A stretch of 19,561 nt of DNA from the IMG/VR virus record IMGVR_UViG_2585427752_000010; one strand, given 5' to 3'. The position numbers and the translations under genes were made by a program. The first letter of the stretch is position 1. Each line of letters begins with the position of its first letter. Positions 4,092-19,561 of the stretch are shown piece by piece. The DNA comes from a virus (taxonomy: Duplodnaviria; Heunggongvirae; Uroviricota; Caudoviricetes). The notes under the pieces were generated by a model. That model was not told the origin of the DNA. It saw only the letters and a program-made list of their open reading frames with translations, and did no database searches.

Positions 4092-4522
4092 CCGTCCAGA
4101 AGAAGACATTTTCACTGGCTGGTATGTCGCCAAAATCCAGCAATATGACGGCAAAGTCAGGCATTAATACAGCAGATACAAGCAAAGTTTATCATTTGCT
4201 GGTGGTCGGAACGGATGCCTTAACCATATCAGAAATCTCGGGCGATGATATTAGCATTGAGAAGGTCAGCGGCTGCGCCAGAGAATTTCTGGTCGTAGAT
4301 GACCTGTTCTGCTCGCGTAGTGACTCCACAAAAACATTCGTCCACGCGCGTGACGTTAACGAAATGAGCGCGATGTACTGTGCTTCTGGTTCTTCCAATA
4401 GTGAGTTTTCGGAGTCCATAAAAAAGAGCTTGCCGTTATGCGGCAACACGGTTTATGGTTATAAGGCACCTCATAAAACGGGTGCCGGGTTTCGCAGCCC
4501 GGAAATGTACGAGGCGACACAT

Positions 4523-4544
4523 GACGCGCCGAGCGTCTTTTTTT
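4523..4544 (+). terminator. putative intrinsic terminator inside the ambiguous 4085-4746 region
   Basis: GACGC-gccga-GCGTC hairpin followed by TTTTTTT. Confidence 0.35.
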
Positions 4545-4746
4545 GTGCCGTTAGCCAGACTCACACTTTTTTCAGTGATGTGGTTATAATCCGCGTCGCT
4601 TGCAAAATTATGGTGGGCTGGACAGGGCAGCCGAAAGGCTGGCCGGTTTCCTTGTACGCCGGTACTGCGAACTCTGTTCAGTCCACCACCAGCGAGTTTC
4701 GCAGCTCCGGTGGTGGGAAGAATTCCCAGTACAAGGAGGCTGCCAC

Positions 4747-11380: not shown

Positions 11381-11842
11381 ATGGAACTAAAATTTATTGA
11401 TAACCCTGTGCGATTACAGGCCTTTCTTAACGATCCTGGCAATACCGAAAATATTGTTGAGCCGGGGCACACGTACTACATCAAGCCTGATGCGGTATAT
11501 CTCGGCATCTACGAAGGATTGGTGCTGGCTGGCGTTCATGAAGTGCGTAACTTCTGGCATAGCATTGTTGAATGCCATGCGGTGTACGACCCCGGATTCC
11601 GTGGTGAATATGCACTGCAAGGGCATCGATTATTCTGCAAATGGCTTCTCGAAAACTCACCATTCCTTAACAGCATCACTATGGTTCCTGACACCACGAA
11701 ATACGGACGGGCAATTATCCGTTTGCTTGGCGCTACCCGTGTTGGTCACCTTGATGATGCTTATATCAGATGTGGTAAACCCGTCGGCGTAACGCTTTAT
11801 CAGTTAACTCGGCAACAATATAAGGAATTCAGCGAATGTTAA
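11381..11842 (+). CDS. hypothetical protein (153 aa), second gene of the operon
   Basis: ORF starting 17 nt after the small gene; stop overlaps the next start (ATGTTAA). Confidence 0.75.
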   Translation: MELKFIDNPVRLQAFLNDPGNTENIVEPGHTYYIKPDAVYLGIYEGLVLAGVHEVRNFWHSIVECHAVYDPGFRGEYALQGHRLFCKWLLENSPFLNSITMVPDTTKYGRAIIRLLGATRVGHLDDAYIRCGKPVGVTLYQLTRQQYKEFSEC

Positions 11843-12513
11843 TTACCCATATAGCTCATAAACATCTCAATCGTGCCGTATACGAAAAAGGCGGTGATGG
11901 TGGTGCCTCTAAAGCTCAGGCGAAGGCCCAGCAGCAGGCAATTGATTTGCAGCGCGAGCAGTGGAATACGGTGATGAATAATCTCAAGCCGTATGCAGAA
12001 GTCGGATTGCCTGCTTTACAACAACTACAAGGACTGATGACTCTGGAAGGGCAGAATAAAGCCGCGAATGATTTCTTTGGTTCTGGTTTATATAAAACAC
12101 AGGCAGATCAGGCCCGTTATCAGAACCTTGTCTCAGCAGAAGCTACCGGGGGGCTTGGCTCAACAGCTACCAGTAACCAGTTATCTTCCATTGCGCCCAT
12201 GCTTTATAACAATTGGCTTAGTGGGCAAATGCAAAATTATGGAAACCTGCTAAATGTCGGGATGAATGCGGCATCAGGACAGGCAACGGCAGGGCAAAAC
12301 TACGCCAATAATACCGGACAACTCTTGCAGGGGCTTGGCGCTATTCGTGCAGGTCAGGCGCAGCAGCCATCCAGTCTTGCGCGTGGTATTGGTGGGGCAG
12401 CATCAGGCGCTTTAGCGGGTGCGCAACTTGGTTCCGTTGTTCCTGGAATAGGTACTGCGGCAGGCGCTATTGGTGGTGGGCTTATTGGTCTTGTTGGGGG
12501 GCTTGGATTCTAA
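11836..12513 (+). CDS. Gly/Ala/Gln-rich protein with C-terminal glycine-zipper hydrophobic segment (225 aa)
   Basis: AAGGAA RBS; low-complexity Q/A/G/N-rich body; C-terminus GIGGAASGALAGAQLGSVVPGIGTAAGAIGGGLIGLVGGLGF has repeated GxxxG spacing typical of membrane-inserting glycine zippers. Confidence 0.75.
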   Translation: MLITHIAHKHLNRAVYEKGGDGGASKAQAKAQQQAIDLQREQWNTVMNNLKPYAEVGLPALQQLQGLMTLEGQNKAANDFFGSGLYKTQADQARYQNLVSAEATGGLGSTATSNQLSSIAPMLYNNWLSGQMQNYGNLLNVGMNAASGQATAGQNYANNTGQLLQGLGAIRAGQAQQPSSLARGIGGAASGALAGAQLGSVVPGIGTAAGAIGGGLIGLVGGLGF

Positions 12514-13826
12514 TGGCGACATGGCAACTTGGCGGGCTGCCTAGCATGGCACCGCAAAATGATAATGCTCCTCGTTCTTCCGTTCCTCAGCCTGTGCAGT
12601 ATCAGCAGCAGCCAAACGTAGGTTTAATGGCGCTACAGGGGCTAAGAGGCGTTGCTGAGATTAATCAGCAGGCGCAAATTTCCCAGCAGCTAAAAGAATA
12701 TCAGGCACGGTTGGGTAGTGCGGTAGCTAATAATGATCGTGTTGGCGTGCAGAAGTTAATGGCCCAGTATCCCCAGTTTATGGCTGATTCTCAAAAACAG
12801 ATGGGATTCATTGATGCTGAGCAAAATCGGCAGACCGCTGACGCTGCCATGAATCTGCGTCTTGCGTCACAAACTGGAGATCCACTGACCATGCAGAAGG
12901 CCATTCAGCAGGCAAATCCAGTATTACAGCGATTTGGTCTTCCTGCTGAAGAGGTTTATCAGTCTTGGCAGAATGACCCACAGGAATTCAACAGAATCAC
13001 TGACCTCATCCACCTCCATGCTGATCCAAATAGTTACTTTAGTGTTCAAGAGAAGCAGCAAGGGCAGAGTATTGCACAGCAGAACGCAGATACATCTGCA
13101 TATAATGCTCAGGTTAATGCGGAACAGGGTAATCGGCGTCTCGATATGGAGCAGTTCAAAGCCCTATCCGATAACCAGCTACGCACGAGAGAAATGGTTC
13201 TGAAAGCACGACTTGGACGTGCTCAAAATGACATCGAGAGAGACAAGCTCAATGCTGAACTGAGCAAGGTACAGCAGGCGAAAGTGGAGAAGATGAACGA
13301 TAAAATTAATACTGTTGTAGGTAACATCGACTCCTTGAACTCTGCGCTTGAAGTGGGTCATGAACTGGCGGGAATTGTAGGGAAACATCCTTCGGCCGTT
13401 ACCCGTTCGCAGAACTATAACCCCCTGACGCTGGGGTTTGGATTCCTTCCTGATGTAGCAGAAGACACACGAAGCCTACGCGCCAAAGCTGATGAATACA
13501 ACCTAAAGGTTATTCTGCCTAGCCTCAAAGGGACTTTTGGCTCTAACCCAACCGAAGGGGAAAGGGCTGCCCTTATGCAATCTCAAAATGGCATTAAGTC
13601 AGCAACCAGCAATGAGGCATTTTTGCGAGAGTTGAATAAAGCGCAGGACGTAATTATTCGAATGCAGAAACGACAGATTGCCGGGCTCGGTATTCCTGTA
13701 ACCAAATCTAAGGACGAAGAAACTGATACCAAAATGCTGTTGCAGGATCCTTCTCTGGTTAAGGATTATGTGACCGCACATGGCTATCTGCCGGAAAGTT
13801 ACTATCAGGCAAAACTTAAGGGATAG
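12513..13826 (+). CDS. Gln-rich, probably coiled-coil protein (437 aa)
   Basis: ATG overlaps the upstream stop (TAATG); Q-rich N-terminal half and charged, heptad-like central region. Confidence 0.8.
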   Translation: MATWQLGGLPSMAPQNDNAPRSSVPQPVQYQQQPNVGLMALQGLRGVAEINQQAQISQQLKEYQARLGSAVANNDRVGVQKLMAQYPQFMADSQKQMGFIDAEQNRQTADAAMNLRLASQTGDPLTMQKAIQQANPVLQRFGLPAEEVYQSWQNDPQEFNRITDLIHLHADPNSYFSVQEKQQGQSIAQQNADTSAYNAQVNAEQGNRRLDMEQFKALSDNQLRTREMVLKARLGRAQNDIERDKLNAELSKVQQAKVEKMNDKINTVVGNIDSLNSALEVGHELAGIVGKHPSAVTRSQNYNPLTLGFGFLPDVAEDTRSLRAKADEYNLKVILPSLKGTFGSNPTEGERAALMQSQNGIKSATSNEAFLRELNKAQDVIIRMQKRQIAGLGIPVTKSKDEETDTKMLLQDPSLVKDYVTAHGYLPESYYQAKLKG

Positions 13827-13828
13827 CA

Positions 13829-16549
13829 ATGATGGCACAACTGACAGAAAAACAGAAAGCCTATTCCCGTCATCTCGATGAAAAATATGGTTTCCCATCA
13901 GGGACGATGGAAACATTAGTTGGCAATGAATCTAGTGGTAACGGAAGTGCCGAGTCACCGAAAGGAGCTAGAGGATTTGCTCAACTGATGCCCTCAGTAA
14001 TGAGTGATGCTGGTTATCGTGGAACAGATCCGCGCTCACTGCCATTTGAAAAGCAAATGGATATCGCAGCAAACCATCTCAATAAAGGAATGAAGCGATT
14101 TGGTGATATAGGTATGGCATTGGCTGGGTATAATTCTGGCTATGCTCGTATTAATGCCGTAAGAAACGGTAAATCTACACTGCCAGATGAAACGGCTAAT
14201 TACGTAAGTAAATTTGCAGATGCCGGAATAATCCCTGATGACAGTGAAATCTTGCAGTTTGCACAAACCAGTCAACATCGCAATCTTCAGCAGCCTGACT
14301 ACTCAGAGCTTGATAAAGAAATCTCTCAGGTGGGAGATATTTCTGCATGGGAAGCAAAACGTCAGCAATTTAAGAACATAGAAGCAGGACTACCAACAGC
14401 CAGTTCATGGGAGCAGAAAAGAGCTCAGTTTCTCGCCGATGAAAATGCCGGGGAACCGCAGCAGCAAGTAGCCAAGTCTAACCTTAATCCTGAGATGGAA
14501 TATCTTTCGCCAGGACTGAAAGCTGCGCCAGAGCAGATGGCCAGAGGGATTGCTAATATACCGTTTGATGTAATGGACGCAGGCGTGGGGGTAGTCAATG
14601 CGGCGCAATCAGCCGGAGCATGGGCAGCTCAGAAGCTTGGTGTGGGTGATGGCACATACACGCCCATATCACCTGTCTTTCGCCCAGTAGACCAACCTAC
14701 AGATCCATACGCGCAGGCTGGTGAGCAGCTAGCACCTTACCTTATTACAGGATTAGGTGCAGGAAAGGCAGCTACCGCAGCTTCTTCAGTTGCCAACGCT
14801 CCACGTGCTGAACGTGCGGCCACAAAGGTGGCTAGTATGTTGGCAGAAAACCTGCCAGGTACATTGGTGAACGCCCAAAAGAACGGGCAGATCAGCCCAG
14901 AAGACCTAGCAAAAGAGACAGGTATTGGCCTAGCAGGATCGCTAGGAGCACGCGCTTTAATAAAGAGCGGACAGACAGCCAGTGACGTAATGCGAGATGT
15001 ATTGCGGAGTAATACAAATCAATCAGGCCATGTGTTAGGGGCAGCAAATACTCTGGAAACCGCCAATGATGTATCGAAAGCAGCGCGTTCTGCCGTAGGC
15101 CGAGAGCATATCGCATCGCAGGCATCAAACGTCAGAGATGATGTCGCTAAGGCGGCGAAAATTACTGGTATTAATATCAACACCCTGACGCCTGGAATGC
15201 GCTCAGGTAGTCGTGGAATTGCCCAAGCAGAAGGTGTTCTGGCATCAACTCCTGGGAATGTTCAGGATGCTCACCTTACGGCCTTCAATGAAATATCCTC
15301 AAAGTTGAATAAGCAGTTGTCTGATTTCGGTGCTGAGTCTGGAAGCGCATCAGAAAAAAGCGCAGCAATTAAAGAGCGCATCATCGCGAGCCTCAGTGAT
15401 ATGAAAACAGCAGAGAATATGGCATGGGCAGAACTGCGAAGCACGATGCCACGCGAAAGGATGAAAATGAGTAATGGGATGGCTGTCGTCCAAGCAGAAA
15501 AAGCAGCCAATGTTCCACTCAGCCCGGAGATGAAACAGTTTCAGGCTGCCAACAACCAAGGTGGCGGCATAACCTTCGACGGGATGAAGGCATGGCGTGC
15601 TAAGTTTGCTGATGCTGAACAAGCAAACACCCGGGCAGGTAAGGCCAATGCCGCCCGGATTGCCGGAGAAATGCGCAGAGCTATCACTGATGACATGCGC
15701 ATCATGGCTGAAAAAGGAAACTTCCTCACAGAATGGCAGAAAGCTAACGATCTCTCTAAAAGTTACATTATCGCCAAACAAAATGCCGAATCTGTTTTTG
15801 GTCGAGATCTCGCATCAGACGCTATGGTAAGAAAAGGTGCCGATACGCTTAAGGCATCCGCAAACACTGGAACGGGAGCTTTTCACCGTCTTATCTCCGC
15901 GCTGCCGGAAGCAGAACGCCAACCAGCAATAGCATCTATTCTTCAGCATGCTGTGGCGCAGGGAGAGAAGGGAGGAATCGGTGAAGAATCTGGTATCCAG
16001 TATTTTGCCAAGCTCATGACCCAGCAGAATGTAAACGCCATCAGTCGTCATGCGCCAGATCTCGGTAGAATGATGAAAGAGTTCGGTGTACTCGCTAAAG
16101 CCAGCACCAGACCGCAGCGATACGTAGAGCGCACGGGAAGAACAACTGAGGCTCTCAAAACGCTCGATTCAGGCCTTCCAAAGATCGTCGGCGTGATTAT
16201 GAACGGAGTTCAACAGTCAGGTGCGATCGCTGGAGGCTTTGGCGGTGGTGTAATTGGTTCGATTAGTGGTTTGGTTGCTGGTGGCGCGCTGAGAAATACT
16301 GTGGCTAAGATTGGGGCGACAAGAAGTGGTAGATATGCGATAGAGAAAGCCGTTCAGGAAGCTACAAAAGCAGTGCGCGCAGGGGCATCACCAGCAGCGA
16401 TCGCCGCAGCAGAGAAACGATTTTCGGCCAATAAAATTGCCATGAAAGCAATTCGTGATGCCGTTGGGGCTGAAGAATTCGTGAAACTGACAAGGGCCGG
16501 GATTGTAGCTACCCTCAGTGGCATGAAAGATGTTAGCGAATGGGAATAG
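13829..16549 (+). CDS. large protein with N-terminal lytic transglycosylase (SLT) domain and C-terminal Gly-rich hydrophobic segment (906 aa)
   Basis: N-terminal NESSGNGSAESPKGARGFAQLMP fits the SLT catalytic ES...GA.G..QLMP pattern and ALAGYNSGYARI fits the AYN.G motif; long Ala-rich body; near the C-terminus GGFGGGVIGSISGLVAGGAL. Confidence 0.85.
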   Translation: MMAQLTEKQKAYSRHLDEKYGFPSGTMETLVGNESSGNGSAESPKGARGFAQLMPSVMSDAGYRGTDPRSLPFEKQMDIAANHLNKGMKRFGDIGMALAGYNSGYARINAVRNGKSTLPDETANYVSKFADAGIIPDDSEILQFAQTSQHRNLQQPDYSELDKEISQVGDISAWEAKRQQFKNIEAGLPTASSWEQKRAQFLADENAGEPQQQVAKSNLNPEMEYLSPGLKAAPEQMARGIANIPFDVMDAGVGVVNAAQSAGAWAAQKLGVGDGTYTPISPVFRPVDQPTDPYAQAGEQLAPYLITGLGAGKAATAASSVANAPRAERAATKVASMLAENLPGTLVNAQKNGQISPEDLAKETGIGLAGSLGARALIKSGQTASDVMRDVLRSNTNQSGHVLGAANTLETANDVSKAARSAVGREHIASQASNVRDDVAKAAKITGININTLTPGMRSGSRGIAQAEGVLASTPGNVQDAHLTAFNEISSKLNKQLSDFGAESGSASEKSAAIKERIIASLSDMKTAENMAWAELRSTMPRERMKMSNGMAVVQAEKAANVPLSPEMKQFQAANNQGGGITFDGMKAWRAKFADAEQANTRAGKANAARIAGEMRRAITDDMRIMAEKGNFLTEWQKANDLSKSYIIAKQNAESVFGRDLASDAMVRKGADTLKASANTGTGAFHRLISALPEAERQPAIASILQHAVAQGEKGGIGEESGIQYFAKLMTQQNVNAISRHAPDLGRMMKEFGVLAKASTRPQRYVERTGRTTEALKTLDSGLPKIVGVIMNGVQQSGAIAGGFGGGVIGSISGLVAGGALRNTVAKIGATRSGRYAIEKAVQEATKAVRAGASPAAIAAAEKRFSANKIAMKAIRDAVGAEEFVKLTRAGIVATLSGMKDVSEWE

Positions 16550-18196: not shown

Positions 18197-18652
18197 TTAT
18201 ACGCTGACCTTACAATCAATCACCGCTTTTAACTTTTCAGCATTGCTTCCCTGACGCTTCCACGCGCTGTAAATATCTTTATCCCACGCTTTACCAGCTT
18301 TTGTTTGATAGCCTGCTTCATTGATCCGTTCAGCTATCACACGCCCATTATCAAATCCCTGTTGGATGGTATCGGCAATGATCTTTATAACTGCCGTTTC
18401 GTTATATGGCTTTGGTGGGATGTTCGGCTTTCCGGCAATAAGCGACGCAGCGGCTTTTTCCATGCGCTCCACCAGCCCAAGCATTCGTGAATCAATAGAC
18501 TTTTCCGGCTGTCTCAGCTTCATGCGAATCGCATCAACAAGCCAGGAGGTTTTATCCCCTCCAGAAGCGAGAACAGACCGATTAAACTCATCCTGCAATT
18601 CAGATGGGATGCGGAACGCGACCAGATTAGATTTGCTCATTGCAAAGACCAT
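18197..18652 (-). CDS. RHH-like DNA-binding protein (151 aa, or 147 aa from the alternative start at 18640)
   Basis: N-terminus SNLVAFRIPSELQDEFNRSVLASGGDKTSWLVDAIRMKL has a strand-helix-helix pattern; no clear SD for either candidate start. Confidence 0.65.
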   Translation of the reverse strand: MVFAMSKSNLVAFRIPSELQDEFNRSVLASGGDKTSWLVDAIRMKLRQPEKSIDSRMLGLVERMEKAAASLIAGKPNIPPKPYNETAVIKIIADTIQQGFDNGRVIAERINEAGYQTKAGKAWDKDIYSAWKRQGSNAEKLKAVIDCKVSV

Positions 18653-18671
18653 ATCAGTGAGTAATATCCAT

Positions 18672-18701
18672 ACAGTATACCACTGTATAACACTGTTATA
18701 C
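18672..18701. promoter_or_regulatory. paired palindromes upstream of the minus-strand RHH-like gene (putative operator)
   Basis: ACAGT-atacc-ACTGT (18672-18686) overlapping a 17-bp palindrome GTATAACA-C-TGTTATAC (18685-18701). Confidence 0.45.
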
Positions 18702-18753
18702 GCTCAAATATCAGCCAGAAAATAACGGACCAATCACAAAGCTATCGCTGTGT

Positions 18754-18875
18754 TGTTGGTTCAGAGCTGGGCTGTGTTGGTTCAAAATGAGTTGATGTTG
18801 GTTCAATATTTCAGAAAAAACACAATAAAAACAACGATCTTTACAAATTGAACCAACTGAACCAACTGAACCAAC
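18754..18875. repeat. phased iteron array: 3 direct TGTTGGTTCA repeats at 21-bp spacing plus 3 tandem inverted TGAACCAAC repeats
   Basis: TGTTGGTTCA at 18754, 18775 and 18796; AT-rich spacer; TGAACCAAC x3 in tandem at 18849-18875, ending 17 nt before a TATAAT (18893-18898) upstream of the PerC-like gene. Confidence 0.65.
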
Positions 18876-18911
18876 ACCTTTTTGCTTATCTATATAATCT
18901 GAGAGGCAGAA

Positions 18912-19199
18912 ATGATAAGGGACAGGAAAGCTGAAGAGCTGGAGTCAAAAGGGCTATACCGGAGAGCTGCCGCACGATGGGCAGAAGTCATGATGCTGGC
19001 AGATGGCGATAAAGAACGTGAACATGCAGCAAACAGACGTTCTGAATGTATCCGTAAGGCGGCACGCCCACCAGCAACTACAGACAGATTCGGAGATTTA
19101 AGACAGGCAGTTAAGCGGACTCATTCGGCTCTTGGTATGGATGAGGAAGCGAGAGGGTACTTCAGGCGTTATCGCGATAAAGATTGCCAGAGACAGTAA
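18912..19199 (+). CDS. PerC-family transcriptional regulator-like protein (95 aa)
   Basis: GAGAGG RBS; N-terminus MIRDRKAEELESKGLYRRAAARWAEVM resembles PerC/Pch regulators of E. coli prophage-like elements (recalled, not searched). Confidence 0.6.
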   Translation: MIRDRKAEELESKGLYRRAAARWAEVMMLADGDKEREHAANRRSECIRKAARPPATTDRFGDLRQAVKRTHSALGMDEEARGYFRRYRDKDCQRQ

Positions 19200-19272
19200 T
19201 GCTCTCTCTGTTTTGGCAAATTACCCCTCACTTTGAAGGGATCGGAGCTATAAAAATGGTTTTAGGTACATT

Positions 19273-19372
19273 CCTCAAATTGAGGATTGTGGGAAAACCA
19301 ATGGGTTAGGCTTTTCCCCCAATGGGGGTTTTCGAAAGAATCAATGGGTTAGTCCATCGTGCAAATTTGCAC
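19273..19372. repeat. cluster of palindromes and direct repeats downstream of the PerC-like gene
   Basis: CCTCAA-A-TTGAGG (19273-19285); CCAATGGGTTAGG-like direct repeats starting at 19298, 19319 and 19341 (21-22 bp phase); perfect 14-bp palindrome GTGCAAATTTGCAC (19359-19372). Confidence 0.55.
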
Positions 19373-19561
19373 CATGCCAGCCAACGCAATTTCTCGTTGG
19401 CGAAAATATCAGGTATTTACTGAACGAACGGTCTACCAGTCTGTTCAGTTACCAGTTGCATATGGCTGTTTCATGTGAGAACGGAGGTTTTTTCGGACAT
19501 CACTATTGGGTACAGCAATTTCACGAGCAATACGCGCGCGCAGGACAACAAGCCTGAACAT

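Follow-up and report, generated by a model that had tools for sequence, protein, structure and literature searches.

An array of short palindromes and predicted IHF sites was found in the non-coding DNA at the integrase-distal end of a satellite-like E. coli island, and on balance we favour reading it as a cis-acting DNA module of the composite-operator kind, at which IHF and Roi-type proteins would act. The island was analysed in a window of 19,561 nucleotides (IMG/VR record IMGVR_UViG_2585427752_000010); the window means this whole stretch of DNA, and all positions refer to it unless a locus is named. What is new is that a known phage operator grammar has been redeployed as a variable, multi-allelic, non-coding satellite array. 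The array is unmentioned in the PICI papers that were text-searched, which describe cos sites and att motifs at this place. Little is understood of how Gram-negative phage satellites sense their helpers and make use of them, and the module is common to PICIs, cf-PICIs, helper-embedded PICIs and an ejection-protein island. A phage regulatory site used as a building block would offer a concrete, testable link between satellites, Roi and host IHF, and the little-studied Roi/Rha family would gain a defined operator grammar.

Structure of the array

The array is composed of two units, each a palindrome followed by 10 bp and an IHF site, and then of the palindrome GTGCAAATTTGCAC and a degenerate third unit. 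It is non-coding and lies ~225 bp inside the right junction of the island (225–375 bp from the att repeat). On the plus strand, it is preceded by a leader (19251–19272) that is homologous to the roi codons just upstream of the site in that gene (the AKNGVIR region) and is here out of frame and non-coding. Unit 1 (19273–19308, plus strand) is made of the palindrome CCTCAAATTGAGG (19273–19285), the 10-bp spacer ATTGTGGGAA and the IHF-like site AACCAATGGGTTA (19296–19308), which has one mismatch to the consensus WATCAANNNNTTR, in the core (ACCAA). Unit 2 (19316–19351, plus strand) is made of the palindrome CCCCCAATGGGGG (19316–19328), the 10-bp spacer TTTTCGAAAG and the site AATCAATGGGTTA (19339–19351), a perfect IHF consensus and the sole WATCAANNNNTTR match in the window. 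Both spacers are moderately rich in A/T, judged by eye.

The perfect 14-bp palindrome GTGCAAATTTGCAC (19359–19372, assigned to neither strand) starts 7 bp after the unit-2 IHF site and has no IHF site of its own. It is followed by the remodelled unit 3 (19380–19419, plus strand), in which GCCAACG-N8-CGTTGGC (19380–19401) precedes the IHF-like site TATCAGGTATTTA (19407–19419), a fit to the R variant of the IHF consensus, WATCARNNNNTTR; the equivalent of unit 3 in other satellites is ACGCAATTTTGCGT, 9–10 bp and then TATCAGCAAGTTA. The sites of units 2, 3 and 1 are IHF sites predicted by consensus match (perfect, R variant and one mismatch, respectively). The conserved tail of the module (19420–19488, plus strand) includes the inverted repeat CTGAAC-N17-GTTCAG (19420–19448), and the DNA from there toward the att repeat (19489–19561, plus strand) is integrase-specific and outside the module.

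The initial annotation had described direct repeats at a phase of ~21–22 bp, of which the repeats are real and the phase is an artefact. The true direct repeat is a 39-nt unit (19271–19309 and 19314–19352, 72% identical) with a spacing of 43 bp. In the whole 19.5 kb, the motif CAATGGGTTAG has just two copies, at 19299 and 19342; what had been taken for a middle copy, CCAATGGGGG (19319), forms the middle of the 13-bp palindrome of unit 2. TRF reported no tandem repeat for the array, the identity of the two units being too low at 72%. The inverted repeats named alongside were recovered: GTGCAAATTTGCAC as a perfect palindrome, CCTCAA-A-TTGAGG as the palindrome of unit 1 and GCCAACG/CGTTGGC at 19380–19386 and 19395–19401, the last with a spacer of 8 nt instead of the 9 nt given and an end at 19401.

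Across the module, 107 codons of frame 1 run without a stop (19237–19557), with no ATG, GTG or TTG before 19456. A small protein (Rha/Roi peptide) was rejected as a candidate, as ORF ends vary and there is no conserved start. PGAP places no annotation at the module.

The island and its ends

The window holds an integrase-bearing, satellite-like E. coli island that is sited between yicC and dinD. The first codon of the window is the ATG of a P4-type tyrosine integrase, whose domains are an Arm-DNA-bind_3, a central and a catalytic one, and the order then runs from int-alpA RNA, isrK and C4 RNAs through AntA-/Ash-type proteins, a Toprim/DUF5906 primase and ejection proteins to a PerC-family gene (18912–19199), the last gene before the array. 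Matches at the Rfam gathering level were obtained for int-alpA RNA (1269–1335), isrK (4466–4543) and C4 antisense RNA (4606–4693), which together are a P4/PICI-type immunity RNA set.

Homologues of the P22 head-completion/ejection proteins gp14, gp7, gp20 and gp16 are encoded four in a row (11381–16549), and the gp16-like protein has a transglycosylase at its N-terminus. Such a P22-type ejection-protein block is unusual satellite cargo; capsid, portal and terminase genes are absent from the island. Identification of the helper via the gp20-like protein was rejected, as it is at best 25–28% identical to any phage copy. Between a 151-aa minus-strand ORF and perC (18740–18880), three direct copies of (G)TGTTGGTTCA are followed by three tandem inverted TGAACCAAC, and this iteron-like arrangement may serve the island primase or PerC as a site of replication or regulation.

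An att direct repeat of 24 bp with two mismatches, CGTGTACATA(GA/AG)GGTGTACATAAT, was found at both junctions (locus L002, 6309–6332 on the left and 25298–25321 on the right, the right copy being equivalent to window positions 19625–19648), and at this repeat the island ends, 64–87 bp past the window end. Past the right att lie 72 bp without a K-12 counterpart and then the dinD promoter region common to K-12, which lacks both the 107 bp and the 72 bp that flank the island. TGTACA-centred repeats occur at both junctions, four at the integrase-proximal one (GTGTACATA twice, ATGTACAT and ATGTACAC; L002 6300–6380) and two at the distal one (L002 25290–25325), and probably serve the island's integrase as core and arm sites. 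A 71-aa minus-strand ORF across att has no Pfam match and no similarity to the 93-aa PICI protein that flanks the module. Further off in strain cq9, a gene of the reverse-transcriptase family that K-12 lacks lies between slmA and pyrE (L002 2531–3490).

The proposal in the initial annotation that the repeats serve a gene beyond the window end found no support. Rightward there is only the att repeat and then host dinD, the next chromosomal gene, which has its own LexA-box promoter region as in K-12, and no sigma-70-like promoter was found in 18600–19561. Satellites at other insertion sites, beside unrelated host genes, have the module at their ends too, facing either way. Control of a gene beyond the window was rejected, as no island gene is present there.

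Comparison with chance

Within the window, the four short inverted repeats in 170 bp are the maximum, a value that was reached by 14.5% of block shuffles, and chance alone would give one perfect IHF consensus in a window of this size. Judged from this one sequence, the cluster is no more than suggestive; comparison settles the feature as real. A composite scan was run for a palindrome with at least 5 of 6 pairs, followed by 10 bp and an IHF consensus with at most one mismatch, and in 194 kb on both strands it gave no match outside the modules. All 17 distinct satellite units have the composition that the scan required: the palindrome is 13 bp long and pairs at 5–6 of 6 positions, the gap is 10 bp, and WATCARNNNNTTR is matched with one mismatch at most. 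Among these 17 units, the IHF consensus positions are held, and the N positions, spacers and palindrome sequences vary.

Distribution and conservation among satellites

Sensitive blastn with 19200–19561 gave matches in ~590 complete E. coli genomes out of 5,426. A minority of the matches are roi genes and not modules; many span 19271–19420 alone, with 77–85% identity and at many chromosomal positions. An exact-pattern scan of IMG/VR located the module on 25 contigs. In species-representative genomes, the exact module pattern had no match, and the two-unit pattern had 52 scattered matches, none in Enterobacterales, which are presumably due to chance. The module appears to be confined to E. coli-type genomes.

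In every locus examined, the module is sited in non-coding DNA after the last satellite gene. Its carriers are capsid/decoration/terS PICIs beside phoQ, clpS and yejO, a capsid-forming PICI (cf-PICI) at fis, a helper-embedded PICI within a lambdoid portal gene (EC93), a PerC/Q island at dinD, and sister islands of the window island at the pao and vat loci. It is conserved across satellites with different integrases and att sites and in both orientations, the orientation relative to the island genes being reversed in most other satellites as compared with the window.

The repeats, whose conservation in related elements the initial annotation had left to be checked, are kept there as a type, and unit number and palindrome class vary. 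The commonest PICI version has all three palindrome classes in tandem. Sister islands with near-identical flanks have 1, 2 or 4 roi-type units, and the palindrome beside the unchanging right half is CCCCCAATGGGGG in some and CCTGCATTGCAGG in others; homology among them fades past ~19488–19520, where integrase-specific DNA begins. The palindrome GTGCAAATTTGCAC is present in all module copies, with A/T variation at its centre. The other palindromes differ yet remain palindromic (CCTCAAATTGAGG, CCCCCAATGGGGG, CCTGCATTGCAGG and CAGCCGTTGGCTG).

Such covariation with pairing preserved would also be expected of structured RNA, in which the palindromes would form hairpins in the 3' UTR of perC or of the satellite's late operon and so stabilise the message or act as terminators. 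Two single variants would be G-U wobbles on one strand, and both strands fold somewhat better than shuffles, if weakly so (z = -2.4 and -3.05); the stems, however, are just 5–6 bp with loops of 1–3 nt. Although the module comes after the operon's last gene in most satellites, its orientation to flanking transcription in the window is the opposite of that in the others, and neither a promoter nor a convincing terminator is present. The module had no Rfam match better than E=0.86, and the conserved IHF consensus and the fixed 10-bp gap would be left unexplained. A known RNA family or sRNA was rejected on the absence of an Rfam family, promoter or terminator and on the weak fold z-scores, and a role of the module as structured RNA is judged improbable.

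The distribution also bears on whether the module is an attP arm, with its repeats as arm-type sites for integrase, excisionase or IHF in a recombination complex. The integrase does have an Arm-DNA-binding domain, but the repeats next to att are different ones, of the GTGTACATA type, with four copies at attL and two at attR, and nothing module-like is found on the int side. In favour of an arm, the module has IHF-like sites and is 225–375 bp from the att repeat; for an intasome of the lambda type, its distance from the core is too great. It is common to islands at dinD, pao, vat, phoQ, clpS, yejO, fis and portal, and the DNA between module and att diverges among them. By this comparison of islands at other att sites, an attP arm was rejected, and we assign it only a very small probability.

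An equally small probability is given to a packaging signal, in which case terminase would recognise the array in the manner of cosB or pac, with an IHF bend, and the satellite would thereby hijack the packaging machinery of a helper. Lambda cosB likewise joins protein-binding repeats to an IHF site, and the cos sites of PICIs are near the island ends, with a cosB unlike that of the phage (PMC6739421, PMC6092414). The units, however, come from roi, which is no packaging gene. The module is near terS in many satellites, but in terS PICIs the exact lambda cosN (GGGCGGCGACCT) is 1.0–1.4 kb off, upstream of terS and beyond two genes, and no cosN was found at up to two mismatches in the window or in the sister islands. 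A cos site was rejected by this cosN mapping.

As regards cosN itself, the exact lambda sequence was found upstream of their own terS in the capsid/decoration/terS PICIs (L004 ~5126, L006 ~5365 and 15 other loci), and one locus (L009) has two copies, the additional one ~560 bp from the module. Between att and module, terS-type PICIs have a further 250–500 bp dense in short palindromes (L004 3690–3950); those of L004 are of many sequences, for example CTCCAAATTTGGG, GTTGCAGATCTGCAAC and ACCCAAACTACGGGT, and no phage homologues of this hairpin-rich DNA were found.

Homology to roi

Among phages, the array was matched only within roi, in lambdoid and Stx phages. Its units share homology and grammar with an 18-codon stretch of lambdoid roi (codons ~42–57), and window positions 19251–19313 gave a 63-bp blastn match to the roi of phage JLK-2012 and of Stx phages with 84–86% identity; in the sister island A34, the leader is even closer to roi. 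The JLK-2012 segment, CCTCAAATTGAGG ATTGTGGAAG AATCAATGGGTTA, has the same palindrome and spacer type as unit 1, and the HK629 segment, CCCCCAATGGTGG TTTTCGAAAA AATCAATAACTTA, is homologous to unit 2. In the roi of HK022 (L034 1656–2381), the segment is CCTGCATTGCAGC ACACTAACAT AATCAATGATTTA; its grammar is CCTGCATTGCAG, 10 bp and then AATCAATGATTTA, the sole IHF consensus in 6 kb of HK022. Among 80 IMG/VR roi loci, five allele types with three palindrome classes were distinguished, with identical grammar throughout, and the 10-bp gap is present in all roi alleles and all satellite units. The palindromes are more perfect in the non-coding satellites than in the roi of HK629 or HK022. No phage counterpart was found for GTGCAAATTTGCAC, the remodelled unit 3 or the right half of the module.

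The Roi protein of HK022 reportedly binds a site within its own gene that is closely linked to an IHF site, and IHF is said to stabilise this binding. We infer that the segment homologous to the array (in HK022, nt ~36,784–36,820 of NC_002166) coincides with this Roi/IHF footprint in roi. No other description of the Roi site was found in the literature searched. With homology to the roi-internal segment and close linkage to IHF sites, the array would, as far as its sequence tells, qualify as a Roi operator.

Roi proteins are near-identical outside residues ~21–64, and this hypervariable block of roi holds both the presumed HTH recognition helix and the palindrome with its IHF site. Roi seems to be a DNA-binding protein with its own operator inside the variable part of its gene. 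The recognition helix NVKRTIE(T/M)L pairs with the palindrome CCTCAAATTGAGG, NVK(I/V)SI(E/D)RL with CCTGCATTGCAG and KVKQSIERL with CCCCCAATGGTGG; this tracking of helix and palindrome, which was seen over 5 alleles and between physically tightly linked elements, persists despite mosaic spacers between alleles.

The satellites keep only the equivalent of Roi residues 42–57, repeated 1–4 times, with only the 36–54 bp palindrome-to-IHF span retained. No Rha or Roi domain was found in the module-bearing satellites. The window island has no Rha/Roi-type protein, and roi is absent from the helper prophage of the EC93 helper-embedded PICI, both of which count against the Roi reading; the EC93 case implies that the partner in trans is not always present. 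The Roi reading frame stays open for 37–125 codons through the arrays without a consistent start codon, and this openness fits a recent coding origin.

The homology could alternatively be that of a neutral relic, in which decayed roi fragments were stacked by recombination between satellites and lambdoid phages and by unequal crossing-over, functionless in the satellite. Although ~22 bp of upstream roi coding sequence are kept before the first unit, nothing beyond the palindrome-to-IHF span is ever retained. Both the open roi frame of 37–125 codons lacking a consistent start and the unit number of 1, 2 or 4 among sister islands would agree with decay; the palindromes, however, are perfect, the IHF consensus is kept against a drift of the N positions, and all 17 distinct units have the same 10-bp gap, all this with no coding constraint. 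The EC93 helper without roi would likewise suit a relic, but the position of the module is constant at the end of unrelated satellite types. A relic is unlikely in our judgement; it would be an ordinary finding and would document only that satellites recombine with the nin region of lambdoid phages.

Proposed mechanism

The composite operator for IHF and Roi-type proteins is the reading carried further here. The fixed spacing, the IHF consensus and the perfect palindromes without coding constraint, together with the retention of the site segment alone, argue for a nucleoprotein array on double-stranded DNA. The protein-binding array that had been suggested in the initial annotation is the best-supported reading, and three things speak for it: a grammar that does not vary, matches to the IHF consensus, and homology to the Roi/IHF site in roi. 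The most likely occupants would be IHF and Roi-type dimers.

The units would derive from the roi-internal site and retain its grammar, Roi being a Rha-N/KilAC helix-turn-helix protein. Each palindrome would be bound by a Roi-type dimer, and the palindrome classes would serve different Roi alleles. A lambdoid phage, either resident in the same cell or infecting it, would provide the Roi-type protein in trans, and IHF would bind and bend the adjacent site and so stabilise the complex. The result would be a helper-dependent nucleoprotein complex beside the att region of the satellite. Possible roles of this complex for the satellite are the sensing or titration of a helper protein, or that of a roadblock or insulator at the island end.

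As a tentative extension, which we hold possible but doubtful, the array may be a multi-allelic antenna or decoy, with satellites gathering the operators of several Roi alleles and, together with IHF, sensing or titrating the helper regulator. If so, the fast swapping of unit number and palindrome class would be the signature of an arms race, and roi would be a self-contained specificity cassette with its DNA target inside its own hypervariable coding sequence.

Comparison with known systems

The closest likeness is to the roi-internal Roi/IHF site of HK022 and of lambdoid and Stx phages, which like the array has a 13-bp palindrome, 10 bp and WATCAANNNNTTR; identity is 84–94% over 31–63 bp, and the three palindrome classes are the same. 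Unlike that site, the array is non-coding, tandem and multi-allelic, is placed at the end of a satellite without a roi gene, and is fused to more conserved palindromes that have no phage counterpart.

A site for a host bending protein at a fixed distance from those of a specific DNA-binding protein, in repeated form, is also a feature of the lambda cosB R sites with I1, of P1 parS and of the lambda attP arms. The array has no sequence similarity to any of these, and it has the make-up of neither a cos nor an att site. In the RIP/RIB-type BIMEs of E. coli, REP palindromic units flank an IHF site. BIMEs resemble the array in their short palindromic units and IHF sites and in being extragenic and downstream of operons; the array, in contrast, is unrelated to REP, had no Rfam or REP-like match, and is found only in satellites and roi genes and not dispersed over the chromosome.

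The terminal zone of Gram-negative PICIs, cf-PICIs and helper-embedded PICIs, from the last gene of the late zone to att, is the same place, and the module there is 77–99% identical. As compared with this zone, the module of the window island has the opposite orientation, and P22-type ejection genes replace the capsid and terS genes.
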